This document shows positions 2,854 through 64,000 of a DNA stretch of 64,000 nucleotides, piece after piece (position 1 is the first letter of the stretch; each line of letters starts with the position of its first letter). The notes under the pieces are model-generated. The model saw nothing but the letters and a program-made list of their open reading frames with translations, ran no database searches and was not told the DNA's origin. The DNA is taken from assembly GCF_050920415.1 (NCBI RefSeq), contig NZ_CP169309.1. One strand, given 5' to 3'. Made by a program: the position numbers and the translations under genes. This DNA is from Escherichia coli. Lineage in GTDB: Bacteria > Pseudomonadota > Gammaproteobacteria > Enterobacterales > Enterobacteriaceae.

Positions 2854-4290
2854 ATGTCAAACAACATTCGTATCGAAGAAGATCTGTTGGGTACCAGGGA
2901 AGTTCCAGCTGATGCCTACTATGGTGTTCACACTCTGAGAGCGATTGAAAACTTCTATATCAGCAACAACAAAATCAGTGATATTCCTGAATTTGTTCGC
3001 GGTATGGTAATGGTTAAAAAAGCCGCAGCTATGGCAAACAAAGAGCTGCAAACCATTCCTAAAAGTGTAGCGAATGCCATCATTGCCGCATGTGATGAAG
3101 TCCTGAACAACGGAAAATGCATGGATCAGTTCCCGGTAGACGTCTACCAGGGCGGCGCAGGTACTTCCGTAAACATGAACACCAACGAAGTGCTGGCCAA
3201 TATCGGTCTGGAACTGATGGGTCACCAGAAAGGTGAATATCAGTACCTGAACCCGAACGACCATGTTAACAAATGTCAGTCCACTAACGACGCCTACCCG
3301 ACCGGTTTCCGTATCGCAGTTTACTCTTCCCTGATTAAGCTGGTAGATGCGATTAACCAACTGCGTGAAGGCTTTGAACGTAAAGCTGTCGAATTCCAGG
3401 ACATCCTGAAAATGGGTCGTACCCAGCTACAGGACGCAGTACCGATGACCCTCGGTCAGGAATTCCGCGCTTTCAGCATCCTGCTGAAAGAAGAAGTGAA
3501 AAATATTCAACGTACCGCTGAGCTGCTGCTGGAAGTTAACCTTGGCGCAACAGCAATCGGTACTGGTCTGAACACGCCGAAAGAGTACTCTCCGCTGGCA
3601 GTGAAAAAACTGGCTGAAGTCACTGGCTTCCCATGCGTACCGGCTGAAGACCTGATCGAAGCGACCTCTGACTGCGGCGCTTATGTTATGGTTCACGGCG
3701 CGCTGAAACGCCTGGCTGTGAAGATGTCCAAAATCTGTAACGACCTGCGCTTGCTCTCTTCTGGTCCACGTGCCGGCCTGAACGAGATCAACCTGCCGGA
3801 ACTGCAGGCGGGCTCTTCCATCATGCCAGCTAAAGTAAACCCGGTTGTTCCGGAAGTGGTTAACCAGGTATGCTTCAAAGTCATCGGTAACGACACCACT
3901 GTTACCATGGCAGCAGAAGCAGGTCAGCTGCAGTTGAACGTTATGGAGCCGGTCATTGGCCAGGCTATGTTCGAATCCGTTCACATTCTGACCAACGCTT
4001 GCTACAACCTGCTGGAAAAATGCATTAACGGCATCACGGCTAACAAAGAAGTGTGCGAAGGTTACGTTTACAACTCTATCGGTATCGTTACTTACCTGAA
4101 CCCGTTCATCGGTCACCACAACGGTGACATCGTGGGTAAAATCTGTGCCGAAACCGGTAAGAGTGTACGTGAAGTCGTTCTGGAACGCGGTCTGTTGACT
4201 GAAGCGGAACTTGACGATATTTTCTCCGTACAGAATCTGATGCACCCGGCTTACAAAGCAAAACGCTATACTGATGAAAGCGAACAGTAA
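2854..4290 (+). CDS. aspA: Aspartate ammonia-lyase (aspartase, 478 aa)
   Basis: [30 protein letters not shown]... fumarase/aspartase family with [10 protein letters not shown] signature; start at ATG 2854 within ORF 2809-4290. Confidence 0.95.
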
Positions 4291-8553: not shown

Positions 8554-8629
8554 GCCCGGATAGCTCAGTCGGTAGAGCAGGGGATTGAAAATCCCCGTGT
8601 CCTTGGTTCGATTCCGAGTCCGGGCACCA
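8554..8629 (+). tRNA. pheU: tRNA-Phe (anticodon GAA)
   Basis: Exact match to E. coli tRNA-Phe: GCCCGGATAGCTCAGTCGGTAGAGCAGGGGATTGAAAATCCCCGTGTCCTTGGTTCGATTCCGAGTCCGGGCACCA. Confidence 0.97.
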
Positions 8630-25638: not shown

Positions 25639-26289
25639 ATGACCCGCACACTCAAGCCGTTAATTCTTAACACCGGCGCACTGGCGCTAACGTTAATCCT
25701 GATTTATACCGGCATTTCGGCCAATGACAAACTCACCTGGCTGATGGAAGTGACACCGGTGATTATTGTCGTGCCGCTACTGCTTGCCACCGCTAAACGT
25801 TATCCGTTAACGCCGCTGCTCTATACGCTCATTTTCTTTCACGCCATCATCCTGATGGTCGGCGGGCAATACACCTACGCGAAAGTCCCCGTTGGTTTTG
25901 AGGTGCAGGAATGGCTGGGGTTGAGCCGTAATCCGTATGACAAGCTGGGGCATTTTTTCCAGGGGCTGGTGCCTGCACTGGTGGCGCGAGAAATTCTCGT
26001 TCGCGGGATGTACGTGCGCGGACGTAAAATGGTGGCGTTTCTGGTCTGCTGCGTGGCGCTGGCGATAAGCGCGATGTATGAATTAATCGAGTGGTGGGCA
26101 GCGCTGGCAATGGGTCAGGGAGCGGATGATTTTCTCGGTACCCAGGGCGACCAATGGGACACACAATCCGATATGTTCTGCGCGCTGCTTGGTGCATTAA
26201 CTACGGTGATATTCCTTGCTCGCTTTCATTGCCGCCAGCTACGGCGCTATGGCTTAATCACCAGAGCGCCGGAAGCGATTACCTCTTAA
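25639..26289 (+). CDS. yjdF: Inner-membrane protein YjdF (DUF2238-like)
   Basis: Multi-TM ORF in the conserved position next to fumB; stop TAA at 26287-26289 overlaps the melA stop. Confidence 0.7.
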   Translation: MTRTLKPLILNTGALALTLILIYTGISANDKLTWLMEVTPVIIVVPLLLATAKRYPLTPLLYTLIFFHAIILMVGGQYTYAKVPVGFEVQEWLGLSRNPYDKLGHFFQGLVPALVAREILVRGMYVRGRKMVAFLVCCVALAISAMYELIEWWAALAMGQGADDFLGTQGDQWDTQSDMFCALLGALTTVIFLARFHCRQLRRYGLITRAPEAITS

Positions 26290-36278: not shown

Positions 36279-37370
36279 ATGCGTTTTCTGCGCCGACCAA
36301 TATCGCTGCGCCAACGGCTGATATTGACCATTGGGGCCATTTTGTTGGTGTTTGAGTTGATCAGCGTCTTCTGGCTATGGCATGAAAGTACCGAGCAGAT
36401 TCAGCTGTTTGAGCAGGCGCTACGCGACAATCGTAACAACGATCGCCACATCATGCGTGAGATCCGCGAGGCGGTCGCCAGCCTGATTGTCCCTGGCGTC
36501 TTTATGGTCAGCCTGACGCTATTTATCTGCTATCAGGCGGTACGCCGCATCACCCGCCCGCTGGCGGAGCTGCAAAAAGAGCTGGAAGCGCGCACCGCCG
36601 ACAACTTAACGCCCATTGCCATTCACAGCGCCACCCTCGAAATCGAAGCGGTGGTTTCAGCGTTAAACGATCTGGTCAGTCGCCTGACCAACACGCTGGA
36701 TAACGAAAGGTTGTTTACCGCTGACGTCGCGCACGAACTGCGAACGCCACTGGCGGGGGTGCGTTTGCATCTGGAACTGCTGGCGAAAACGCATCACATT
36801 GATGTAGCACCGTTAGTGGCACGACTTGATCAGATGATGGAGAGTGTCTCCCAGCTACTGCAACTGGCGCGTGCCGGACAGTCATTTTCTTCCGGTAATT
36901 ATCAACATGTAAAACTGCTGGAAGATGTCATTCTCCCCTCGTATGACGAACTCAGTACCATGCTCGACCAGCGCCAGCAAACCCTGCTATTGCCAGAGAG
37001 CGCCGCCGACATCATCGTTCAGGGTGATGCAACCCTGCTGCGGATGTTATTGCGAAACCTGGTAGAAAATGCCCATCGTTACAGCCCGCAAGGCAGCAAC
37101 ATTATGATTAAGCTGCAAGACGATGGCGGAGCGGTCATGGCCGTTGAAGATGAAGGACCGGGTATTGATGAGAGTAAATGCGGGGAGTTGAGTAAAGCGT
37201 TTGTACGAATGGACAGCCGTTATGGCGGGATTGGTCTGGGGTTAAGTATTGTCAGCCGCATTACACAGTTGCATCACGGGCAGTTTTTCCTGCAAAACCG
37301 GCAAGAGACTTCCGGCACGCGGGCCTGGGTACGGCTGAAGAAAGATCAGTACGTGGCAAACCAGATATAA
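36279..37370 (+). CDS. basS: Sensor histidine kinase BasS/PmrB (363 aa)
   Basis: HisKA (DVAHELRTPLAG) and HATPase domains; ATG at 36279; ORF track begins three codons earlier (36270). Confidence 0.9.
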   Translation: MRFLRRPISLRQRLILTIGAILLVFELISVFWLWHESTEQIQLFEQALRDNRNNDRHIMREIREAVASLIVPGVFMVSLTLFICYQAVRRITRPLAELQKELEARTADNLTPIAIHSATLEIEAVVSALNDLVSRLTNTLDNERLFTADVAHELRTPLAGVRLHLELLAKTHHIDVAPLVARLDQMMESVSQLLQLARAGQSFSSGNYQHVKLLEDVILPSYDELSTMLDQRQQTLLLPESAADIIVQGDATLLRMLLRNLVENAHRYSPQGSNIMIKLQDDGGAVMAVEDEGPGIDESKCGELSKAFVRMDSRYGGIGLGLSIVSRITQLHHGQFFLQNRQETSGTRAWVRLKKDQYVANQI

Positions 37371-37439
37371 AGAAAGCTGCTGACCACCAGCACGCTGAAC
37401 ACGGTAGTTAAACTTTCATAAACACGGTTTTTCATTGCA

Positions 37440-37465
37440 CTCTCCTCCGTTAACCTGGAGGAGAG
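37440..37465. terminator. Stem-loop between convergent basS and proP
   Basis: Inverted repeat ctcctcc / ggaggag between convergent 3' ends. Confidence 0.45.
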
Positions 37466-37548
37466 TATGCGTGTCAGAGATTAAGTGAACCTTAAGAGTC
37501 AATTGTTGGCCTGATGAGACAGCATCCCATCAGGCAATTCGTTTCAGC

Positions 37549-43155: not shown

Positions 43156-43187
43156 TTGTATTGCTCAATGTAATATTGGCACATGAT

Positions 43188-43335
43188 CGGTAGGCCGGAT
43201 AAGGCGCTCGCGCCGCATCCGGCTACGGTGCCGACTGCCTGATGCGACGCTCGCGCGTCTTATCAGGCCTACAAATTCTCGCACCATCCGGCAACGGTGC
43301 CTAATGCGACGCTTACCGAGTCTTATCAGCCCCCG
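43188..43335. repeat. REP / BIME cluster (about three REP units in alternating orientation)
   Basis: Units gtaggccggataaggcgctcgcgccgcatccggc, gcctgatgcgacgctcgcgcgtcttatcaggcctac and a third partial unit match the E. coli REP consensus. Confidence 0.75.
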
Positions 43336-43394
43336 CTCATCTGTATAATTTTCGAACTACACTTAACTGGCTTCTCTTAACTGAGGTCACCATC

Positions 43395-43838
43395 ATGCCG
43401 TTAAGTCCCTACCTCTCTTTTGCTGGTAACTGTTCCGATGCGATTGCCTATTATCAACGCACGTTGGGCGCGGAACTGCTTTATAAAATCAGCTTCGGCG
43501 AAATGCCGAAATCAGCGCAGGACAGCGCCGAGAACTGCCCTTCCGGTATGCAATTTCCCGATACCGCTATCGCCCATGCTAACGTGCGTATTGCCGGAAG
43601 CGATATCATGATGAGCGATGCCATACCGTCAGGAAAAGCCAGCTACTCCGGTTTTACACTGGTACTCGATTCGCAACAGGTCGAAGAAGGAAAACGCTGG
43701 TTTGATAACCTTGCTGCTAACGGAAAAATCGAAATGGCCTGGCAGGAAACTTTCTGGGCGCATGGCTTCGGCAAAGTCACCGATAAATTTGGCGTGCCGT
43801 GGATGATTAATGTCGTCAAACAACAACCAACGCACTAA
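43395..43838 (+). CDS. yjdN: Glyoxalase/VOC-fold protein YjdN (PhnB, 147 aa)
   Basis: Small soluble ORF in the conserved position between phnA and phnC. Confidence 0.75.
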   Translation: MPLSPYLSFAGNCSDAIAYYQRTLGAELLYKISFGEMPKSAQDSAENCPSGMQFPDTAIAHANVRIAGSDIMMSDAIPSGKASYSGFTLVLDSQQVEEGKRWFDNLAANGKIEMAWQETFWAHGFGKVTDKFGVPWMINVVKQQPTH

Positions 43839-43970
43839 CCCGCCGGGAGGCCCGCCCTCCCGCACTGTCATCGAATTCCCGTTAACTCTTCATCTGTTAG
43901 TCACTTTTAGTTAACAAAATCGTCACGATAATCCGCCACGATGGAGCCACTTTTTTAGGGAGGCTGCATC

Positions 43971-44759
43971 ATGCAAACGATTATCCGTGTCGAGAAGCTC
44001 GCCAAAACCTTCAATCAGCATCAGGCGCTGCATGCGGTTGATCTGAACATTCATCACGGTGAAATGGTGGCTCTGCTTGGGCCGTCCGGTTCCGGCAAAT
44101 CCACCCTTTTACGTCATTTAAGCGGTTTGATTACCGGCGATAAATCTGCCGGTAGCCATATCGAGCTGCTGGGCCGCACAGTCCAACGCGAAGGCCGCCT
44201 GGCCCGCGATATCCGCAAAAGCCGCGCCAACACCGGCTACATCTTCCAACAATTCAACCTGGTGAATCGCCTGAGCGTACTGGAGAACGTGCTGATTGGC
44301 GCGCTCGGCAGCACGCCATTCTGGCGCACCTGTTTTAGCTACTTCACCCGCGAGCAGAAACAGCGCGCGTTACAGGCGCTGACCCGCGTTGGCATGGTGC
44401 ACTTTGCCCATCAGCGCGTTTCCACCCTCTCCGGCGGACAGCAGCAGCGTGTGGCGATTGCCCGTGCGCTGATGCAGCAGGCGAAGGTGATTCTGGCCGA
44501 TGAACCCATCGCCTCGCTGGACCCGGAATCGGCGCGCATCGTGATGGACACCCTGCGCGACATTAACCAGAACGACGGCATTACCGTGGTCGTCACGCTG
44601 CATCAGGTGGATTACGCCCTGCGCTACTGCGAACGCATCGTCGCCCTGCGCCAGGGGCACGTCTTCTACGACGGCAGCAGCCAACAGTTTGATAACGAAC
44701 GTTTTGACCATCTCTACCGCAGCATTAACCGCGTCGAAGAGAACGCGAAAGCTGCCTGA
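43971..44759 (+). CDS. phnC: Phosphonate ABC transporter ATP-binding protein PhnC
   Basis: Walker [13 protein letters not shown] signature LSGGQQQR, Walker B ILADEP. Confidence 0.93.
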
Positions 44760-44783
44760 CATCCCCATCATTGAGGAAAACGA

Positions 44784-45800
44784 ATGAACGCTAAGATAAT
44801 TGCCTCGCTGGCCTTCACCAGCATGTTCAGCCTCAGCACCCTGTTCAGCCCGGCGCACGCCGAAGAGCAGGAAAAGGCGCTGAATTTCGGCATTATTTCA
44901 ACGGAATCACAGCAAAACCTGAAACCGCAATGGACGCCTTTCCTGCAAGATATGGAGAAGAAACTGGGCGTAAAGGTCAACGCCTTCTTTGCTCCGGACT
45001 ACGCGGGCATTATCCAGGGGATGCGCTTCAACAAAGTGGATATCGCCTGGTACGGCAACCTGTCGGCGATGGAAGCGGTGGATCGCGCCAACGGTCAGGT
45101 CTTCGCCCAGACGGTCGCGGCGGATGGATCGCCGGGTTACTGGAGCGTGTTGATCGTCAACAAAGATAGCCCGATCAACAACCTGAACGATCTGCTGGCC
45201 AAGCGTAAAGATCTCACCTTCGGCAATGGCGATCCTAACTCCACCTCTGGCTTCCTCGTCCCCGGCTACTACGTCTTCGCCAAAAACAATATCTCCGCCA
45301 GCGACTTCAAGCGCACCGTCAACGCCGGGCATGAAACCAACGCCCTCGCCGTCGCCAACAAGCAGGTGGATGTCGCCACCAACAACACTGAAAACCTCGA
45401 CAAGCTGAAAACCTCCGCGCCGGAGAAGCTGAAAGAACTGAAGGTGATCTGGAAATCGCCGCTGATCCCAGGCGATCCGATCGTCTGGCGCAAAAATCTG
45501 TCCGAAACCACCAAAGACAAGATCTACGACTTCTTTATGAACTACGGCAAAACGCCGGAAGAGAAAGCGGTGCTGGAACGCCTGGGCTGGGCGCCGTTCC
45601 GCGCCTCCAGCGACCTGCAACTGGTGCCAATTCGCCAGCTCGCACTGTTTAAAGAGATGCAAAGCGTGAAGGACAACAAAGGGCTGAACGAACAGGACAA
45701 GCTCGCGAAAACCACCGAGATACAGGCGCAACTGGATGACCTGGATCGCCTGAACAACGCGTTAAGCGCGATGAGTTCGGTGAGTAAAGCGGTGCAGTAA
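44784..45800 (+). CDS. phnD: Phosphonate ABC transporter periplasmic binding protein PhnD
   Basis: Signal peptide plus substrate-binding-protein fold; between phnC and phnE. Confidence 0.93.
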   Translation: MNAKIIASLAFTSMFSLSTLFSPAHAEEQEKALNFGIISTESQQNLKPQWTPFLQDMEKKLGVKVNAFFAPDYAGIIQGMRFNKVDIAWYGNLSAMEAVDRANGQVFAQTVAADGSPGYWSVLIVNKDSPINNLNDLLAKRKDLTFGNGDPNSTSGFLVPGYYVFAKNNISASDFKRTVNAGHETNALAVANKQVDVATNNTENLDKLKTSAPEKLKELKVIWKSPLIPGDPIVWRKNLSETTKDKIYDFFMNYGKTPEEKAVLERLGWAPFRASSDLQLVPIRQLALFKEMQSVKDNKGLNEQDKLAKTTEIQAQLDDLDRLNNALSAMSSVSKAVQ

Positions 45801-45813
45801 TGTGCTCGATCGG

Positions 45814-45905
45814 TCCCCTCTCCCTTGAGGGAGAGGGTTAGGGTGAGGGGGGAAATACGCACGCTGATGCCCTCACCCCGGCCCTCTCCCACAGGGAGAG
45901 GGAGA
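45814..45905. repeat. Pair of inverted GC-rich palindromic intergenic elements (boxC-like) between phnD and phnE
   Basis: gtcccctctcccttgagggagagggttagggtgagggg and, in opposite orientation, gccctcaccccggccctctcccacagggagagggag. Confidence 0.7.
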
Positions 45906-45926
45906 AAACATTAAACGGAGCCAAAC

Positions 45927-46706
45927 ATGCAAACCATCACCATCGCCCCACCCAAGCGCAGCTGGTTCTCGCTTCTGAGCTGGGCCATTGTTCTCGCCGT
46001 GCTGGTCGTCTCGTGGCAGGGCGCGGAAATGGCCCCGCTCACGCTGATTAAAGACGGCGGCAACATGGCGACGTTCGCCGCCGACTTCTTCCCGCCCGAT
46101 TTCAGCCAGTGGCAGGATTACCTCACCGAAATGGCCGTCACGCTGCAAATCGCCGTCTGGGGCACTGCGCTGGCAGTCGTTCTCTCCATCCCCTTCGGCC
46201 TGATGAGCGCCGAAAACCTGGTGCCGTGGTGGGTTTACCAGCCCGTTCGCCGCCTGATGGACGCCTGCCGCGCCATTAACGAGATGGTCTTCGCCATGCT
46301 GTTCGTGGTCGCCGTCGGTCTCGGTCCGTTCGCTGGCGTACTGGCGCTGTTTATCCACACCACCGGCGTGCTCTCCAAACTGCTTTCCGAAGCGGTGGAA
46401 GCGATTGAACCCGGCCCGGTGGAAGGCATTCGCGCCACCGGTGCCAATAAGCTCGAAGAGATCCTCTACGGCGTGCTGCCGCAGGTCATGCCGCTACTGA
46501 TTTCCTACTCACTCTATCGTTTCGAATCCAACGTGCGTTCCGCCACCGTTGTTGGCATGGTCGGCGCTGGCGGAATTGGCGTCACGCTGTGGGAAGCGAT
46601 TCGCGGTTTCCAGTTCCAGCAAACCTGCGCCCTGATGGTGCTGATTATCGTCACGGTCAGCCTGCTGGATTTCCTCTCTCAACGGTTGCGTAAGCACTTT
46701 ATCTGA
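45927..46706 (+). CDS. phnE: Phosphonate ABC transporter permease PhnE, uninterrupted frame (259 aa)
   Basis: Single continuous ORF with ABC permease EAA-like loop; no frameshift within the window. Confidence 0.9.
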
Positions 46707-46726
46707 TAAGCGAGGCATTGATATCT

Positions 46727-47452
46727 ATGCACTTGTCTACACCTCCGACCAGCTACCCAACACGCTATCAGGAGATAGCCGCAAAACTTGAGCAGGAGCT
46801 TCGTCAACACTACCGCTGCGGCGACTATCTTCCCGCCGAGCAGCAACTGGCAGCGCGCTTTGAGGTGAATCGCCACACCCTGCGCCGTGCCATCGACCAA
46901 CTGGTGGAAAAAGGCTGGGTACAGCGCCGTCAGGGCATCGGCGTACTGGTGCTGATGCGCCCGTTCGATTACCCGCTCAACGCCCAGGCGCGTTTTAGCC
47001 AGAACCTGCTGGATCAGGGTAGCCATCCCACCAGCGAAAAACTGCTGTCCGTGCTGCGCCCGGCCTCCGGTCACGTCGCTGACGCGCTGGGGATAACCGA
47101 GGGCGAGAACGTTATCCACCTGCGCACCCTGCGCCGGGTCAACGGCGTCGCGCTCTGTTTAATCGACCACTACTTTGCGGACCTCACTCTCTGGCCGACG
47201 CTGCAACGCTTCGACAGCGGCTCGCTGCACGATTTTTTGCACGAGCAAACGGGAATTGCGCTGCGCCGCAGCCAGACGCGGATCAGCGCCCGCCGCGCCC
47301 AGGCCAAAGAGTGCCAGCGTCTTGAAATTCCGAATATGTCGCCGCTGCTGTGCGTGCGCACCCTTAACCACCGTGACGGTGAAAGCAGCCCGGCGGAGTA
47401 CTCCGTCAGCCTGACGCGCGCCGACATGATTGAATTCACCATGGAGCACTGA
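46727..47452 (+). CDS. phnF: GntR-family repressor PhnF
   Basis: N-terminal GntR HTH (YLPAEQQLAARFEVNRHTLRRAIDQL) plus UTRA-like domain; start at ATG 46727. Confidence 0.92.
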   Translation: MHLSTPPTSYPTRYQEIAAKLEQELRQHYRCGDYLPAEQQLAARFEVNRHTLRRAIDQLVEKGWVQRRQGIGVLVLMRPFDYPLNAQARFSQNLLDQGSHPTSEKLLSVLRPASGHVADALGITEGENVIHLRTLRRVNGVALCLIDHYFADLTLWPTLQRFDSGSLHDFLHEQTGIALRRSQTRISARRAQAKECQRLEIPNMSPLLCVRTLNHRDGESSPAEYSVSLTRADMIEFTMEH

Positions 47453-47905
47453 ATGCACGCAGATACCGCGACCCGCCAGCACTGGATGTCCGTGCTGGCG
47501 CACAGCCAACCGGCTGAACTGGCTAACCGCCTTAAAGCGCTAAACATCACCACCGACTATGACATTATCCGCGCCGCCGAAACCGGCCTGGTACAGATTC
47601 AGGCGCGAATGGGTGGCACCGGCGAACGCTTTTTTGCTGGCGACGCTACGCTCACCCGCGCCGCTGTACGCCTTACTGACGGCACGCTCGGCTACAGCTG
47701 GGTGCTGGGGCGCGACAAACAGCACGCCGAACGCTGCGCGCTGATTGACGCGCTGATGCAGCAATCTCGCCACTTTCAAAACTTATCAGAAACCCTTATT
47801 GCCCCGCTGGACGCTGACCGTATGGCACGCATTGCCGCACGCCAGGCCGAAGTGAACGCCAGTCGGGTCGACTTCTTTACGATGGTTCGCGGAGACAACG
47901 CATGA
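47453..47905 (+). CDS. phnG: C-P lyase core complex subunit PhnG
   Basis: Order and size in the phn operon; overlaps phnH start. Confidence 0.9.
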
Positions 47906-48486
47906 CCCTGGAAACCGCTTTTATGCTTCCCGTGCAGGATGCCCAGCACAGTTTTCGTCGCCTGTTAAAGGCAATGAGCGAGCCGGGCGTGATTGTCGCC
48001 CTGCATCAGCTCAAACGCGGCTGGCAGCCGCTGAATATCGCCACCACCAGCGTGCTGCTGACGCTGGCCGATAACGACACGCCGGTGTGGCTTTCCGCGC
48101 CATTAAGTAACGATATCGTCAGCCAGAGCCTGCGTTTTCATACCAACGCCCCGCTGGTCAATCAGCCGGAACAGGCGACCTTCGCAGTGACGGATGAGGC
48201 GATTGCCAGCGAGCAGCTCAACGCCCTTTCCACCGGCACCGCCGTTGCGCCGGAAGCCGGTGCGACGTTGATTTTACAGGTCACCAGCCTGAGCGGCGGA
48301 CGCATGCTGCGCCTCACCGGCGCGGGTATTGCCGAAGAACGGATGATCGCCCCGCAACTGCCGGAGTGCATTCTGCACGAACTCACCGAGCGCCCGCACC
48401 CGTTCCCGCTCGGCATCGACCTGATCCTGACCTGCGGCGAGCGCCTGCTGGCTATTCCGCGAACCACTCATGTGGAGGTGTGCTGA
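47902..48486 (+). CDS. phnH: C-P lyase core complex subunit PhnH
   Basis: Order and size in the phn operon; stop overlaps phnI ATG. Confidence 0.9.
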
Positions 48487-49550
48487 TGTACGTTGCCGTG
48501 AAAGGGGGCGAGAAGGCGATCGACGCCGCCCACGCCCTGCAAGAGAGCCGACGCCGGGTCGATACCGATTTGCCTGAACTGAGCGTCGCCCAGATTGAAC
48601 AGCAGCTTAATCTCGCGGTGGATCGCGTGATGACCGAAGGCGGCATTGCCGACCGCGAACTGGCCGCACTGGCGCTGAAACAGGCCAGTGGCGATAACGT
48701 TGAAGCAATTTTCCTGCTGCGCGCCTACCGCACGACGCTGGCAAAACTGGCGGTAAGCGAGCCGCTCGACACCACCGAGATGCGTCTCGAACGCCGTATC
48801 TCCGCCGTTTATAAAGACATTCCTGGCGGCCAGCTGCTTGGCCCGACCTACGACTACACCCATCGCCTGCTCGATTTCACCCTGCTGGCGAATGGCGAAG
48901 CGCCGACGCTGACCACCACCGACAGCGAGCAAGCCCCATCGCCGCACGTTTTCAGCCTGCTGGCGCGTCAGGGGCTGGCGAAGTTTGAAGAGGATAGCGG
49001 CGCACAGCCGGATGACATCACCCGTACACCGCCGGTTTACCCTTGCTCTCGCGCCTCCCGCCTGCAACAGCTCATGCGCGGCGACGAAGGCTACTTGCTG
49101 GCGCTGGCCTACTCCACCCAGCGTGGTTACGGACGCAATCACCCGTTCGCAGGCGAAATCCGCAGTGGCTATATCGACGTGTCTATTGTGCCGGAAGAGC
49201 TGGGATTTGCGGTGAACGTCGGTGAACTGCTGATGACCGAGTGTGAAATGGTTAACGGTTTTATCGACCAGCCGGATGAGCCGCCGCACTTCACGCGCGG
49301 CTACGGGCTGGTGTTTGGCATGAGCGAGCGCAAAGCGATGGCAATGGCGCTGGTTGACCGCGCTCTACAAGCCCCGGAGTACGGCGAGCACGCGACAGGC
49401 CCGGCGCAGGATGAAGAGTTCGTGCTGGCGCATGCCGACAACGTCGAAGCCGCAGGCTTTGTCTCGCACCTCAAACTCCCGCACTACGTCGATTTCCAGG
49501 CCGAGCTGGAGCTACTCAAACGTCTGCAACAGGAGCAGAACCATGGCTAA
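48486..49550 (+). CDS. phnI: C-P lyase subunit PhnI (ribosyl-triphosphate-forming nucleosidase, 354 aa)
   Basis: Start at ATG 48486 ([13 protein letters not shown]...) inside the longer ORF 48366-49550. Confidence 0.92.
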   Translation: MYVAVKGGEKAIDAAHALQESRRRVDTDLPELSVAQIEQQLNLAVDRVMTEGGIADRELAALALKQASGDNVEAIFLLRAYRTTLAKLAVSEPLDTTEMRLERRISAVYKDIPGGQLLGPTYDYTHRLLDFTLLANGEAPTLTTTDSEQAPSPHVFSLLARQGLAKFEEDSGAQPDDITRTPPVYPCSRASRLQQLMRGDEGYLLALAYSTQRGYGRNHPFAGEIRSGYIDVSIVPEELGFAVNVGELLMTECEMVNGFIDQPDEPPHFTRGYGLVFGMSERKAMAMALVDRALQAPEYGEHATGPAQDEEFVLAHADNVEAAGFVSHLKLPHYVDFQAELELLKRLQQEQNHG

Positions 49551-50388
49551 TCTGAGCGGCTACAACTTTGCGTACCTCGACGAGCAGACCAAACGTATGA
49601 TCCGCCGCGCCATCTTAAAAGCGGTGGCGATCCCCGGTTATCAGGTGCCGTTTGGCGGGCGCGAGATGCCGATGCCATACGGCTGGGGAACCGGCGGCAT
49701 ACAGCTTACCGCCAGTGTGATTGGCGAAAGCGACGTGTTGAAGGTGATTGACCAGGGCGCGGATGACACCACCAACGCCGTATCAATTCGCAACTTTTTC
49801 AAGCGCGTGACCGGGGTAAACACCACTGAACGTACGGATGATGCGACGCTTATCCAGACGCGCCACCGCATCCCCGAAACGCCGCTGACCGAAGATCAGA
49901 TCATTATCTTCCAGGTGCCGATCCCGGAACCGCTGCGCTTTATCGAGCCGCGCGAAACGGAGACCCGCACCATGCACGCGCTGGAGGAGTACGGCGTGAT
50001 GCAGGTGAAACTGTATGAAGATATCGCCCGCTTCGGTCATATCGCCACCACCTACGCCTATCCGGTGAAGGTGAACGGACGCTACGTCATGGACCCATCG
50101 CCGATCCCGAAATTTGATAACCCGAAAATGGACATGATGCCCGCCCTGCAACTGTTCGGCGCGGGGCGTGAGAAGCGTATTTATGCGGTGCCGCCGTTTA
50201 CCCGCGTGGAAAGCCTCGATTTCGACGATCATCCGTTCACCGTTCAGCAGTGGGATGAACCCTGCGCCATCTGCGGATCGACCCACAGCTATCTCGATGA
50301 AGTGGTGCTGGATGACGCCGGAAACCGCATGTTTGTCTGCTCCGATACCGATTATTGCCGCCAACAGAGCGAGGCGAGAAGCCAATGA
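49543..50388 (+). CDS. phnJ: C-P lyase catalytic subunit PhnJ (radical SAM-dependent, 281 aa)
   Basis: MANLSGYNFAYLDEQTKRMIRRAILKAVAIPGYQVPFGG... with C-terminal Cys cluster CAICGSTHSYLDEVVLDDAGNRMFVCSDTDYC. Confidence 0.93.
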   Translation: MANLSGYNFAYLDEQTKRMIRRAILKAVAIPGYQVPFGGREMPMPYGWGTGGIQLTASVIGESDVLKVIDQGADDTTNAVSIRNFFKRVTGVNTTERTDDATLIQTRHRIPETPLTEDQIIIFQVPIPEPLRFIEPRETETRTMHALEEYGVMQVKLYEDIARFGHIATTYAYPVKVNGRYVMDPSPIPKFDNPKMDMMPALQLFGAGREKRIYAVPPFTRVESLDFDDHPFTVQQWDEPCAICGSTHSYLDEVVLDDAGNRMFVCSDTDYCRQQSEARSQ

Positions 50389-51143
50389 ATCAACCGTTAC
50401 TTTCGGTCAATAACCTGACCCACCTTTACGCGCCGGGCAAAGGCTTCAGCGATGTCTCTTTTGATTTATGGCCGGGGGAAGTGCTGGGCATTGTCGGGGA
50501 ATCCGGTTCCGGGAAGACCACGCTGCTGAAATCAATCTCCGCCCGTCTGACACCGCAACAGGGGGAGATTCACTATGAAAACCGTTCCCTCTATGGCATG
50601 AGCGAGGCCGACCGCCGTCGCCTGCTGCGCACCGAATGGGGCGTGGTGCATCAGCATCCGCTCGACGGCCTGCGCCGTCAGGTGTCAGCAGGCGGCAATA
50701 TCGGCGAACGGCTGATGGCGACCGGGGCGCGTCATTACGGCGATATTCGCGCCACCGCGCAGAAGTGGCTGGAGGAGGTGGAGATTCCCTCCAACCGTAT
50801 CGACGACCTGCCGACCACTTTTTCCGGCGGTATGCAGCAGCGTTTGCAGATTGCCCGCAACCTGGTGACGCATCCGAAGCTGGTGTTTATGGATGAACCG
50901 ACCGGCGGGCTGGATGTATCGGTACAGGCGCGCCTGCTCGATCTGCTGCGCGGTCTGGTGGTGGAGCTGAATCTGGCGGTGGTGATTGTCACCCATGATT
51001 TAGGCGTCGCCCGCCTGCTGGCGGACCGTTTGCTGGTGATGAAGCAGGGGCAGGTGGTGGAGAGTGGGTTAACCGACCGCGTACTCGACGACCCGCATCA
51101 TCCGTATACCCAGTTGCTGGTGTCATCGGTTTTGCAGAATTGA
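50385..51143 (+). CDS. phnK: ABC-type ATPase-like C-P lyase accessory protein PhnK
   Basis: Walker A GESGSGKTT; start at ATG 50385. Confidence 0.92.
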   Translation: MNQPLLSVNNLTHLYAPGKGFSDVSFDLWPGEVLGIVGESGSGKTTLLKSISARLTPQQGEIHYENRSLYGMSEADRRRLLRTEWGVVHQHPLDGLRRQVSAGGNIGERLMATGARHYGDIRATAQKWLEEVEIPSNRIDDLPTTFSGGMQQRLQIARNLVTHPKLVFMDEPTGGLDVSVQARLLDLLRGLVVELNLAVVIVTHDLGVARLLADRLLVMKQGQVVESGLTDRVLDDPHHPYTQLLVSSVLQN

Positions 51144-51165
51144 GTTGCAACACTTTGCGCACTGA

Positions 51166-51275
51166 TCCCCTCACCCCGGCCCTCTCCCGGAGGGAGAGGG
51201 AGAAAACCGGCGCAATATTCAACACCGTGCACAAGCGGTCCCCTCGCCCCTTTGGGGAGAGGGTTAGGGTGAGGG
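51166..51275. repeat. Second pair of the same inverted GC-rich palindromic elements, between phnK and phnL
   Basis: tcccctcaccccggccctctcccggagggagagggag and gtcccctcgcccctttggggagagggttagggtgagggg; same family as 45814-45905. Confidence 0.7.
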
Positions 51276-51320
51276 GCAATGTGCGCACCGCTCCCAAACA
51301 TGCGAACCACGAGGCGAAAA

Positions 51321-52001
51321 ATGATTAACGTACAAAACGTCAGTAAAACCTTCATCCTGCACCAGCAAAACGGCGTGCGCCTGCCCGTCTTACAACGCGC
51401 CTCGCTCACCGTCAACGCGGGCGAATGCGTGGTGCTCCACGGTCACTCCGGCAGCGGCAAATCAACTCTGCTACGCTCGCTGTACGCCAACTATCTGCCC
51501 GACGAAGGGCAAATCCAGATCAAACACGGTGACGAATGGGTAGACCTGGTCACCGCGCCAACGCGCAAAGTGGTGGAAATCCGCAAAACCACTGTCGGCT
51601 GGGTAAGCCAGTTTCTGCGCGTCATCCCGCGTATTTCGGCACTGGAAGTGGTGATGCAGCCGCTGCTCGATACCGGCGTTTCGCGTGATGCCTGCGCCGC
51701 TAAAGCCGCGCGTCTGCTCACCCGCCTGAACGTGCCGGAACGTCTGTGGCACCTGGCGCCATCGACCTTCTCCGGCGGCGAACAGCAGCGCGTCAACATC
51801 GCGCGCGGCTTTATCATCGATTACCCCATTCTGCTGCTCGACGAACCTACTGCCTCGCTGGACGCCAAAAACAGCGCCGCGGTGGTGGAACTGATCCGCG
51901 AAGCTAAAACCCGCGGCGCAGCCATCGTCGGCATCTTCCACGACGAAGCCGTACGCAATGACGTCGCCGACCGCCTGCACCCAATGGGAGCCTCTGCATG
52001 A
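51321..52001 (+). CDS. phnL: ABC-type ATPase-like C-P lyase protein PhnL
   Basis: Walker [10 protein letters not shown]; start at ATG 51321 ([11 protein letters not shown]...). Confidence 0.92.
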
Positions 52002-53134
52002 TTATCAATAACGTCAAACTGGTGCTGGAAAACGAAGTGGTACACGGTTCGCTGGAGGTGCAGGACGGCGAAATTCGCGCCTTTGCCGAAAGCCAGAGCC
52101 GCCTGCCAGAAGCGATGGACGGCGAAGGTGGCTGGCTGCTGCCGGGACTGATTGAGCTGCATACCGATAATCTGGATAAATTCTTCACCCCGCGCCCGAA
52201 AGTGGACTGGCCCGCCCACTCGGCGATGAGCAGCCACGATGCGCTGATGGTGGCGAGCGGCATCACCACCGTGCTGGACGCCGTGGCGATTGGCGACGTG
52301 CGCGACGGCGGCGATCGGCTGGAGAATCTGGAAAAGATGATCAACGCCATCGAAGAGACGCAGAAACGCGGCGTCAACCGCGCCGAGCACCGCCTGCACC
52401 TGCGCTGCGAACTGCCGCATCACACTACGCTGCCGCTGTTTGAAAAACTGGTGCAGCGCGAGCCGGTCACGCTGGTGTCGCTAATGGACCACTCACCGGG
52501 CCAGCGCCAGTTCGCCAATCGCGAGAAGTATCGCGAATATTACCAGGGCAAATACTCGCTCACCGATGCGCAGATGCAGCAGTACGAAGAGGAACAACTG
52601 GCGCTTGCCGCACGCTGGTCGCAGCCGAATCGCGAAACCATCGCCGCAATGTGCCGCGCGCGACAAATTGCCCTCGCCAGCCACGATGACGCCACGCACG
52701 CGCACGTTGCCGAATCCCACCAGCTTGGCAGCGTAATCGCCGAATTTCCCACCACGTTCGAAGCGGCGGAAGCTTCGCGCAAGCATGGCATGAATGTATT
52801 GATGGGCGCGCCGAATATTGTGCGCGGCGGTTCGCACTCCGGCAACGTGGCGGCCAGTGAACTGGCACAGCTTGGTCTGCTGGATATCCTCTCTTCCGAC
52901 TACTACCCCGCCAGCCTGCTCGATGCGGCATTCCGCGTCGCCGATGACGAGAGCAACCGCTTTACGCTGCCGCAGGCGGTGAAGCTGGTGACTAAAAATC
53001 CGGCGCAGGCGCTTAATCTTCAGGATCGCGGGGTGATTGGCGAGGGCAAACGCGCCGACCTGGTGCTGGCGCATCGCAAGGGCAACCACATTCATATCGA
53101 TCACGTCTGGCGTCAGGGTAAAAGGGTGTTCTGA
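51998..53134 (+). CDS. phnM: Amidohydrolase-family ribosyl-triphosphate diphosphatase PhnM
   Basis: Metal-dependent amidohydrolase motifs; operon position. Confidence 0.92.
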
Positions 53135-53691
53135 TGACGGGAAAACTGATTTGGTTAATGGGGGCCTCTGGCTCCGGAAAAGACAGTCTGTTGACGGAAC
53201 TCCGCCAGCGGGAACAAACTCAGCTACTGGTAGCGCATCGCTACATCACGCGCGCCGCCAGCGCCGGAAGTGAAAACCATATCGCCCTGAGCGAGCAGGA
53301 GTTTTTTACCCGCGCGGGGCAGAACCTTCTGGCCTTAAGCTGGCACGCCAACGGCCTGTATTATGGCATCGGCGTCGAGATTGACCTCTGGCTGCACGCT
53401 GGATTTGACGTGGTGGTCAACGGCTCACGCGCCCATCTACCGCAGGCGCGGGCGCGCTATCAATCGGCGCTGCTGCCCGTTTGTTTACAGGTTTCGCCAG
53501 AGATCCTGCGCCAGCGCCTGGAAAACCGTGGTCGTGAAAATGCCAGTGAAATTAACGCCCGGCTGGCGCGCGCTGCCCGCTATACTCCTCAGGATTGTCT
53601 TACGCTCAATAATGACGGCAGCCTGCGCCAGTCGGTCGACAAGCTGCTGACGCTGATTGATCTGAAGGAGAAACACCATGCCTGCTTGTGA
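53134..53691 (+). CDS. phnN: Ribose 1,5-bisphosphate phosphokinase PhnN
   Basis: P-loop [10 protein letters not shown]; operon position. Confidence 0.92.
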
Positions 53692-54112
53692 GCTTCGCCC
53701 GGCTACGCAGTACGACACCGACGCAGTTTACGCGCTGATTTGTGAGCTAAAACAGGCGGAGTTTGACCACCACGCGTTTCGCGTGGGCTTTAACGCCAAT
53801 CTGCGCGACCCGAACATGCGCTACCATCTGGCGCTGCTGGATGGCGAAGTTGTCGGCATGATCGGCCTGCATTTGCAGTTTCATCTGCATCATGTCAACT
53901 GGATCGGCGAAATTCAGGAACTGGTGGTGATGCCGCAGGCGCGCGGTCTGAACGTCGGCAGTAAATTACTGGCATGGGCCGAAGAAGAAGCCCGCCAGGC
54001 CGGGGCCGAAATGACCGAGCTTTCCACCAACGTCAAGCGCCACGACGCGCACCGTTTCTATCTGCGCGAAGGCTACGAGCAGAGCCACTTCCGCTTCACC
54101 AAGGCGCTGTAA
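53678..54112 (+). CDS. phnO: GNAT aminoalkylphosphonate N-acetyltransferase PhnO
   Basis: GNAT motif ([26 protein letters not shown]); operon position. Confidence 0.92.
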
Positions 54113-54113
54113 C

Positions 54114-54872
54114 ATGAGCCTGACCCTCACACTTACTGGCACTGGCGGCGCACAGGGTGTTCCCGCATGGGGCTGTGAGTGCGCGGCCTGCGCCAGAGCG
54201 CGGCGCTCACCGCAGTATCGCCGCCAGCCATGCAGCGGCGTCGTGAAGTTTAACGACGCGATCACCCTGATCGACGCCGGGCTGCACGATCTCGCCGATC
54301 GCTGGTCGCCCGGATCGTTCCAGCAGTTTTTGCTGACGCACTACCATATGGATCACGTGCAGGGGCTGTTTCCGCTGCGCTGGGGCGTGGGCGATTCGAT
54401 CCCGGTCTACGGCCCGCCGGATGAACAGGGCTGCGACGATCTGTTTAAACATCCGGGCCTGCTTGATTTCAGCCACACGGTGGAGCCATTTGTGGTGTTT
54501 GATTTGCAGGGATTGCAGGTGACGCCGCTACCGCTTAACCATTCGAAACTCACTTTCGGCTATTTACTGGAAACGGCGCACAATCGGGTGGCGTGGCTGT
54601 CTGACACCGCGGGCCTGCCAGAAAACACGCTGAAATTTTTACTCAATAATCATCCGCAGGTGATGGTGATTGATTGCAGCCATCCGCCGCGCGAGGATGT
54701 GCCGCGTAATCACTGCGATTTAAACACCGTGCTGGCGCTGAATGAGATTATCCGTTCACCGCGCGTGATTCTGACGCACATCAGCCACCAGTTTGATGCG
54801 TGGCTGATGGAAAATACGCTGCCATCGGGGGTTGAGGCGGGGTTTGATGGGATGGAGATTGGGGTGGAGTGA
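54114..54872 (+). CDS. phnP: Metallo-beta-lactamase-fold phosphodiesterase PhnP
   Basis: HxHxDH motif ([10 protein letters not shown]); last gene of the operon. Confidence 0.92.
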
Positions 54873-54906
54873 TGGGTGAGGGGCGATGCCTGCTCTAGAC
54901 TCAACA

Positions 54907-63105: not shown

Positions 63106-64000
63106 ATGAAAAAAGTCGTCACGGTTTGCCCCTATTGCGCATCAGGTTGCAAAATCAACCTGGTCGTCGATAACGGCAAAATCGTCCGGGCGGAGGCAGC
63201 GCAGGGGAAAACCAACCAGGGTACCCTGTGTCTGAAGGGTTATTATGGCTGGGACTTCATTAACGATACCCAGATCCTGACCCCGCGCCTGAAAACCCCC
63301 ATGATCCGTCGCCAGCGTGGCGGCAAACTCGAACCTGTTTCCTGGGATGAGGCACTGAATTACGTTGCCGAGCGCCTGAGCGCCATCAAAGAGAAGTACG
63401 GTCCGGATGCCATCCAGACGACCGGCTCCTCGCGTGGTACGGGTAACGAAACCAACTATGTAATGCAAAAATTTGCGCGCGCCGTTATTGGTACCAATAA
63501 CGTTGACTGCTGCGCTCGTGTCTGACACGGCCCATCGGTTGCAGGTCTGCACCAATCGGTCGGTAATGGCGCAATGAGCAATGCTATTAACGAAATTGAT
63601 AATACCGATTTAGTGTTCGTTTTCGGGTACAACCCGGCGGATTCCCACCCTATCGTGGCGAATCACGTAATTAACGCTAAACGTAACGGGGCGAAAATTA
63701 TCGTCTGCGATCCGCGCAAAATTGAAACCGCGCGCATTGCTGACATGCACATTGCACTGAAAAACGGCTCGAATATCGCGCTGTTGAATGCGATGGGCCA
63801 TGTCATTATTGAAGAAAATCTGTACGACAAAGCGTTCGTCGCTTCCCGTACAGAAGGCTTTGAAGAGTATCGTAAAATCGTTGAAGGCTACACGCCGGAG
63901 TCGGTTGAAGATATCACCGGCGTTAGCGCCAGTGAGATTCGTCAGGCAGCGCGGATGTATGCCCAGGCGGAAAGCGCAGCCATTCTGTGGGGCATGGGTG
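63106..64000 (+). CDS. fdhF: Formate dehydrogenase H selenoprotein FdhF, 5' portion (truncated by window end); codon 140 is an in-frame TGA read as selenocysteine
   Basis: MKKVVTVCPYCASGCKINLVVDNGKIVRAEAAQGKTNQGTLCLKGYYGWDF... molybdopterin oxidoreductase N-terminus; frame continues unbroken after TGA at 63523-63525 to the window end (HGPSVAGLHQSVGNGAMSNAINEIDNTDLVFVFGYNPADSHPIV...). Confidence 0.93.
63526..63570 (+). other. SECIS stem-loop directing selenocysteine insertion at the fdhF UGA
   Basis: Immediately 3' of the TGA: cacggcccatcggttgcaggtctgcaccaatcggtcggtaatggc, matching the recalled fdhF SECIS hairpin. Confidence 0.8.

Follow-up and report, generated by a model that had tools for sequence, protein, structure and literature searches.

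An intact two-unit phnE allele in a complete phn operon of Escherichia coli

Our analysis showed that phnE in the window (by which we mean the whole stretch of E. coli DNA analysed, 64,000 nt in length) is an open reading frame without interruption, and that it is intact by virtue of carrying two copies of an 8-bp repeat, as opposed to three in K-12. It is very probably the ordinary in-frame, ON two-unit allele, coding for the membrane subunit of PhnCDE within a complete 14-gene operon of a non-K-12 E. coli. The positions of the features discussed below are collected in Table 1.

Table 1. Features of the window and the basis of their assignment (Rfam matches were taken at gathering score)
Feature	Position	Strand	Basis and remarks
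tRNA-Phe	8554-8626	+	Rfam
sRNA STnc630	37339-37504	-	Rfam; between pmrB and proP
naRNA4, REP-derived nucleoid-associated RNA	43193-43269	+	Rfam; upstream of yjdN
PhoB box, phnC promoter, CTGTTAGTCAC TTTTAGTTAAC	43894-43915	+	Sequence read
phnC, ABC transporter ATPase, 262 aa	43971-44759	+	NF007438, 606 bits vs cut-off 365; 258/262 aa as in K-12
phnD, periplasmic phosphonate-binding protein, 338 aa	44784-45800	+	TIGR03431, 376 bits vs cut-off 261; 335/338 aa as in K-12
BoxC/PIT/TMECO motif, type A	45816-45849	+	Regex match; phnD-phnE spacer
BoxC/PIT/TMECO motif, type B	45870-45902	-	Regex match; phnD-phnE spacer
phnE, ABC transporter permease, 259 aa, intact	45927-46706	+	TIGR01097, PF00528
Two-unit 8-bp tract, GCTGGCGT ACTGGCGC	46332-46347	+	ORF nt 406-421, codons 136-141; K-12 has its extra unit here
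phnF, GntR-family regulator, 241 aa	46727-47452	+	NF007486, 515 bits vs cut-off 363; 238/241 aa as in K-12
phnG (C-P lyase core)	47453-47905	+	
phnH (C-P lyase core)	47902-48486	+	
phnI (C-P lyase core)	48486-49550	+	
phnJ (C-P lyase core)	49543-50388	+	
phnK, ATP-binding protein	50385-51143	+	TIGR02323, 411 bits vs cut-off 303
BoxC/PIT/TMECO motif, type B	51168-51200	-	Regex match; phnK-phnL spacer
BoxC/PIT/TMECO motif, type A mm	51241-51275	+	Regex match; phnK-phnL spacer
phnL, ATP-binding protein	51321-52001	+	TIGR02324, 368 bits vs cut-off 256
phnM	51998-53134	+	K-12 length
phnN	53134-53691	+	K-12 length
phnO	53678-54112	+	K-12 length
phnP	54114-54872	+	K-12 length
fdhF SECIS element	63518-63572	+	Rfam

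An in-frame phnE encoding a full-length permease

The phnE frame runs unbroken from 45927 to 46706 on the plus strand (780 nt, 259 aa), from an ATG start to a TGA stop. This ATG is the first start codon past the upstream in-frame stop, with none lying farther 5' in frame, and the sequence GGAG is found 7 nt 5' of it. Moreover, in the pairwise alignment with MG1655 an unrelated spacer precedes the gene and homology restarts exactly at CGGAGCCAAACATG, which supports the ATG as the start.

Alignment of the segment 45780-46730 with the MG1655 pseudogene region contains a single 8-bp gap within the ORF, located at the repeat tract, and no further indel anywhere in the 780 nt of phnE. When six strains were placed side by side, the tract in the window was seen to consist of two units, GCTGGCGT at 46332-46339 and ACTGGCGC at 46340-46347, while that of MG1655 consists of three, GCTGGCGT GCTGGCGT GCTGGCGC. 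C41(DE3) (an E. coli B strain), STEC307 and the stool isolate S1-THA-01-A share the tract GCTGGCGT GCTGGCGC, and O157:H7 has GCTGGTGT GCTGGCGC. The second unit opens with A in the window (46340) and with G in C41(DE3), a synonymous change from GTG to GTA. The third GCTGGCGT unit shifts the K-12 frame after residue 140: translated from the shared ATG, MG1655 departs after ...PFAGVLA and reaches a stop about 50 codons on. The K-12 product thereby lacks both the EAA loop (E166-P185) and the membrane segments at the C terminus. The lesion is where it had been described: K-12 phnE has an 8-bp insertion, GCTGGCGT, at ORF positions 407-414, and transport is regained once slippage removes it (PMC6469041). 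Here and below, our statements on slippage rest on that paper and the work it cites.

An open phnE frame could also be due to compensating indels that restore it, or to reversion of a K-12 chromosome to phnE+. The first is ruled out by the ORF alignment, where the 8-bp gap stands alone; at the protein level, four other E. coli PhnE sequences are collinear with that of the window and differ from it by no more than two substitutions. The second is ruled out by divergence, the locus being 94-97.6% identical to MG1655 and not close to 100%, while the spacers of the operon hold different repeat elements (see more below). We regard both explanations as vanishingly improbable, and return to the reading of phnE as an ordinary two-unit allele.

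In the profile search, the window PhnE scored 311.3 bits against TIGR01097, the NCBIfam equivalog for PhnE (cut-off 216.7), with residues 16-258 corresponding to model positions 8-251/252, that is, coverage over the full length of the model. The membrane domain PF00528 (BPD_transp_1) matched residues 88-258 with 91.8 bits. An EAA-type loop, EGIRATG...LP, can be read in the translation at residues 166-185 and fits E-x5-G-x11-LP, the EAA consensus being well established for ABC importers. Immediately 5' of phnE lie phnC (ATPase) and phnD (binding protein), both of which exceed their equivalog cut-offs; model score and coverage, the EAA loop and these adjoining genes together place the product in the PhnE family. 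Kyte-Doolittle hydropathy, scanned crudely over 19 aa at a threshold of 1.6, gave only four strongly hydrophobic stretches and is too blunt an instrument for a count of membrane segments; completeness was judged by the full-length TIGR01097 coverage together with near-identity to the PhnE of E. coli B. At the nucleotide level, phnE is 100% identical in E. coli MFDS1022581 (NZ_CP169399.1), where it is annotated as phnE (WP_001193496.1), and the next best phnE among the 5,394 matching genomes is 97.7% identical.

An earlier note on this DNA, made without database searches, had described phnE as coding for a continuous 259-aa ABC permease, had referred to the 8-bp duplication and frameshift of K-12, and had concluded that the chromosome is not standard MG1655 at this locus. 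These points hold up. The frame is unbroken and its product matches TIGR01097 end to end, with no essential part of the permease found missing over model positions 8-251/252; the duplication is present in MG1655, by alignment as well as in the literature; and in the window the K-12 lesion is absent and the surrounding sequence diverged. Three tandem units accompanied by a frameshift, the marks of the K-12-type cryptic allele, were not found in this phnE.

Distribution of the two alleles and possible phase variation

Among complete E. coli genomes, the 8-bp indel was scored indirectly, through BLAST identity bands. A 90-nt query with the three K-12 units found 1,009 genomes at 95% identity or more and 3,858 at 80-95%, and the lower-band matches listed span 82 nt of the record, which amounts to an 8-bp gap. 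The reciprocal 82-nt query from the window found 3,397 genomes at 90% or more and 994 at 80-90%, the lower-band matches listed spanning 88 nt for 80 query bases. The two-unit allele is thus present in at least 3,400-3,860 of 5,426 complete genomes and the three-unit, K-12-type allele in 994-1,009 of them (about 18%, a figure inflated by K-12 derivatives), with the two queries agreeing on 994 three-unit genomes and with some 560 to 1,040 genomes left unscored because megablast needs an exact word of 28 nt. These reciprocal counts make the two-unit, in-frame arrangement the majority state, and most E. coli have been reported to have a functional phnE (PMC6469041). An intact phnE is therefore the ordinary state of the species, one already known, and not a distinguishing trait of this chromosome. 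The exact 82-nt allele of the window, GTA included, is carried by 394 genomes. At the same time, laboratory strains are not the sole carriers of the K-12-type frameshifted allele: the three-unit set includes wild isolates, for example PigCaeca_1 from pig faeces (NZ_CP039298.1), the phnE of which is annotated as frameshifted in RefSeq.

Perhaps we are looking at a contingency (phase-variable) locus in its ON state, which could go OFF if slipped-strand mispairing added a unit, just as K-12 goes ON when one is lost. In K-12, such spontaneous slippage to two units is documented (PMC6469041 and citations therein), and some 1,000 complete genomes, the frameshift-annotated pig isolate among them, have the three-unit OFF allele. 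However, the two units of the window, GCTGGCGT and ACTGGCGC, differ at two of eight positions, which leaves CTGGCG as the only perfect repeat, and two imperfect copies should give rise to a third far less often than three copies lose one. The change at 46340, by shortening the perfect repeat, may lower the slippage rate. Moreover, one clade together with laboratory derivatives of K-12 could account for most of the 994 three-unit genomes, in place of repeated switching. We therefore consider phase variation unlikely, though deserving of some weight, and keep to the simpler view of an ordinary in-frame allele. For annotation this means that phnE in the window is to be called intact, with the K-12 pseudogene as the exception; the allele counts are a small refinement, and the overall importance of the result is very small.

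The operon from phnC to phnP

All 14 genes from phnC to phnP are present in order, at their K-12 lengths and with no internal stops, and their products are 94-100% identical in amino acid sequence to those of K-12. Twelve of the 14 products pass NCBIfam equivalog cut-offs. At E <= 1e-20, the NCBIfam search gave no match for PhnI and PhnJ; both match Pfam families end to end (PF05861 with 514 bits and PF06007 with 502 bits, respectively), and PhnJ keeps G32, C241, C244, C266 and C272, its catalytic glycine and cysteine residues. Within the C-P lyase core, phnG-phnJ, the models TIGR03293 and TIGR03292 are matched above cut-off and the products are 96-99% identical to K-12. The four products from PhnM to PhnP likewise exceed their cut-offs (NF011981, 811 bits; NF007485, 350; NF007530, 315; TIGR03307, 426), with PhnN (174/185 residues as in K-12) and PhnP (238/252) carrying more substitutions than the other phn products. 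Order, length and freedom from stops are those of a complete C-P lyase operon phnCDEFGHIJKLMNOP.

Neighbouring genes overlap by ATGA at G/H, J/K and L/M and by TGATG at H/I and M/N; I and J overlap by 8 nt, N and O by 14 nt, and F and G abut as TGAATG. The earlier note had described all 14 genes as uninterrupted, which is borne out by gene lengths, the lack of internal stops and the family thresholds passed, and had described them as translationally coupled through ATGA and TAATG overlaps. On this second point the ATGA overlaps are as stated, while the one-base overlaps are TGATG and not TAATG.

Not every strain with an in-frame phnE keeps all 14 genes whole, as is seen in O157:H7 strain Z885: its phnO carries a frameshift according to the annotation, and its phnM, at 1128 nt, falls 9 nt short of the 1137 nt in the window.

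A rare haplotype at the phnC promoter

The 22 nt at 43894-43915 are what we take, from knowledge of the K-12 promoter, to be the phnC Pho box. Three rare substitutions are found in and next to it: A to G at 43910, in the second repeat of the box, where it corresponds to the final base of the TGTCA tract; C to A at 43916, just past the box; and A to G at 43927, at or beside the -10. MG1655, C41(DE3), O157:H7, STEC307 and S1-THA-01-A are identical to one another here, and over the 114 nt 5' of phnC the window haplotype is matched at 99% or more in 27 of 5,397 genomes, with 5,359 at about 97.4%. A scan for generic sigma-70 promoters gave no hit at phnC, as expected of a PhoB-dependent promoter that has no -35, and the -10 could therefore not be placed by the scan. 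A Pho box has been defined as 22 bp made up of two 11-bp repeats (PMC4447250). Of the Pho promoters tested in that study, phnC had the lowest affinity, the latest induction and the highest off-rate; PhoB affinity set the time of onset, and levels at full induction did not track affinity (PMC4447250).

It could be argued from this that the coding sequences are intact but that the operon is induced weakly or late through the rare haplotype, leaving the pathway weak or otherwise cryptic. Three changes in a promoter that is nearly invariant over 114 nt, and the same in five reference strains of different lineages, do lend themselves to such a reading, as does their placement (one in the second repeat of the Pho box, one next to or within the -10) at a promoter with the highest off-rate tested and with an onset set by affinity. 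On the other hand, the first repeat of the box is unchanged, full-induction expression did not track affinity, the haplotype persists in 27 genomes, and the 14 genes have not decayed, as would be expected under selection. Judging from the sequence, a real regulatory defect caused by the haplotype would be very unlikely, and we continue to see the operon as probably coding for the usual PhoB-induced pathway.

BoxC/TMECO pairs in the operon spacers

The phnD-phnE spacer and the 177-nt phnK-phnL spacer each hold an inverted pair of BoxC/PIT/TMECO motifs, one of type A and one of type B (four consensus matches in all). Such motifs follow an intrastrand-triplex consensus, CCCTCNCCC-N3-6-GGGNGAGGG-N3-GGGNGAGGG, and are intergenic, often occurring as an inverted type A and type B pair (PMC4666352). 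At both spacer sites, MG1655, C41(DE3), O157:H7 and S1-THA-01-A have REP-type palindromes. STEC307 has a TMECO pair between phnK and phnL, and between phnD and phnE it retains a 61-nt remnant that looks like such a pair after deletion of its inner portion, with a simple hairpin left over; an inner deletion of this kind has been termed the 'palindromic effect' (PMC4666352). Sequence variability is raised around TMECO sites (PMC4666352).

Divergence and lineage

The phn operon (43187-54874) is 94.0-95.2% identical to MG1655, as compared with 97.4-97.6% for the upstream flank and about 96.6% for the downstream flank. With the nearest other genomes, leaving aside MFDS1022581, identity is 99.2% in the proP-crfC flank and 97.2-97.3% in phn, and the operon is thus two- to three-fold more divergent than its surroundings. 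These comparisons place the window in a sparsely sampled, non-K-12 lineage of E. coli with a faster-diverging phn region, to which the variability linked with TMECO sites may be related. Moreover, one could imagine a rare lineage in which the phn operon is intact and its non-coding parts have been remodelled, with Pho-box and -10 changes as well as TMECO pairs in place of REP elements, and in which such remodelling might shift when or how strongly the operon is induced, change the relative abundance of its segments, and add to phn divergence; we find this idea distinctly unlikely.

The window differs from MFDS1022581 at two positions in 20.8 kb (48559 and 53062). An IS2 is annotated between dcuR and dcuB in that record; the corresponding stretch of the window (about 20.6-22.4 kb) follows MG1655 collinearly. 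Identity of the two was rejected on the grounds of the two mismatches and of the IS2.

Elsewhere in the window, two segments of the MG1655 chromosome have no equivalent. The melB gene is absent, with the junction at 26265/26286 and melA abutting yjdF, so that about 1.67 kb of MG1655 (4343267-4344931) are without counterpart and loss of the melibiose permease is predicted. The D-allose locus alsRBACEK is missing as well, and rpiB is incomplete: at the junction 55442/55651, about 208 nt stand in place of some 6.8 kb of MG1655. The annotation of the near-identical MFDS1022581 record includes a remnant of the rpiB family interrupted by a stop codon.

Predicted function and comparison with known systems

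MG1655 regains PhnCDE transport once it is given the phnE+ allele of BL21, an E. coli B strain (PMC6469041). The window PhnE differs from that of C41(DE3), likewise E. coli B, in a single residue, I21V, and on these two grounds we take it to be functional. By analogy, it would be expected to serve phosphonate (and phosphate) transport in vivo, and the coding capacity of the operon as a whole predicts a functional pathway of phosphonate uptake and C-P lyase. Under phosphate starvation, PhoB would induce the operon, PhnCDE would import phosphonates and the C-P lyase pathway would release phosphate from them, for a predicted phenotype that is the usual Phn+.

Compared with phosphonate ABC importers of the PhnCDE type (TIGR01097, PF00528), the window PhnE has no notable difference, sharing with them the full-length equivalog match, the EAA-type loop and neighbours coding for an ATPase and a binding protein. 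The cryptic phnE of K-12 (b4583, a pseudogene) is the same gene, in the same position and between the same flanking genes, and is set apart from that of the window by its three 8-bp units and frameshift, as against two units in frame. The functional reference, phnE+ of E. coli B (BL21 and C41(DE3)), is the closer parallel in its coding sequence: here, too, phnE has 780 nt, 259 codons' worth of protein and a two-unit tract, and the order and lengths of the operon genes are equal. At the same time, nucleotide identity with E. coli B across the phn operon is about 95%, and the window departs from it outside the genes, with three substitutions at the phnC promoter and with BoxC/TMECO pairs, not REP elements, in the phnD-phnE and phnK-phnL spacers.
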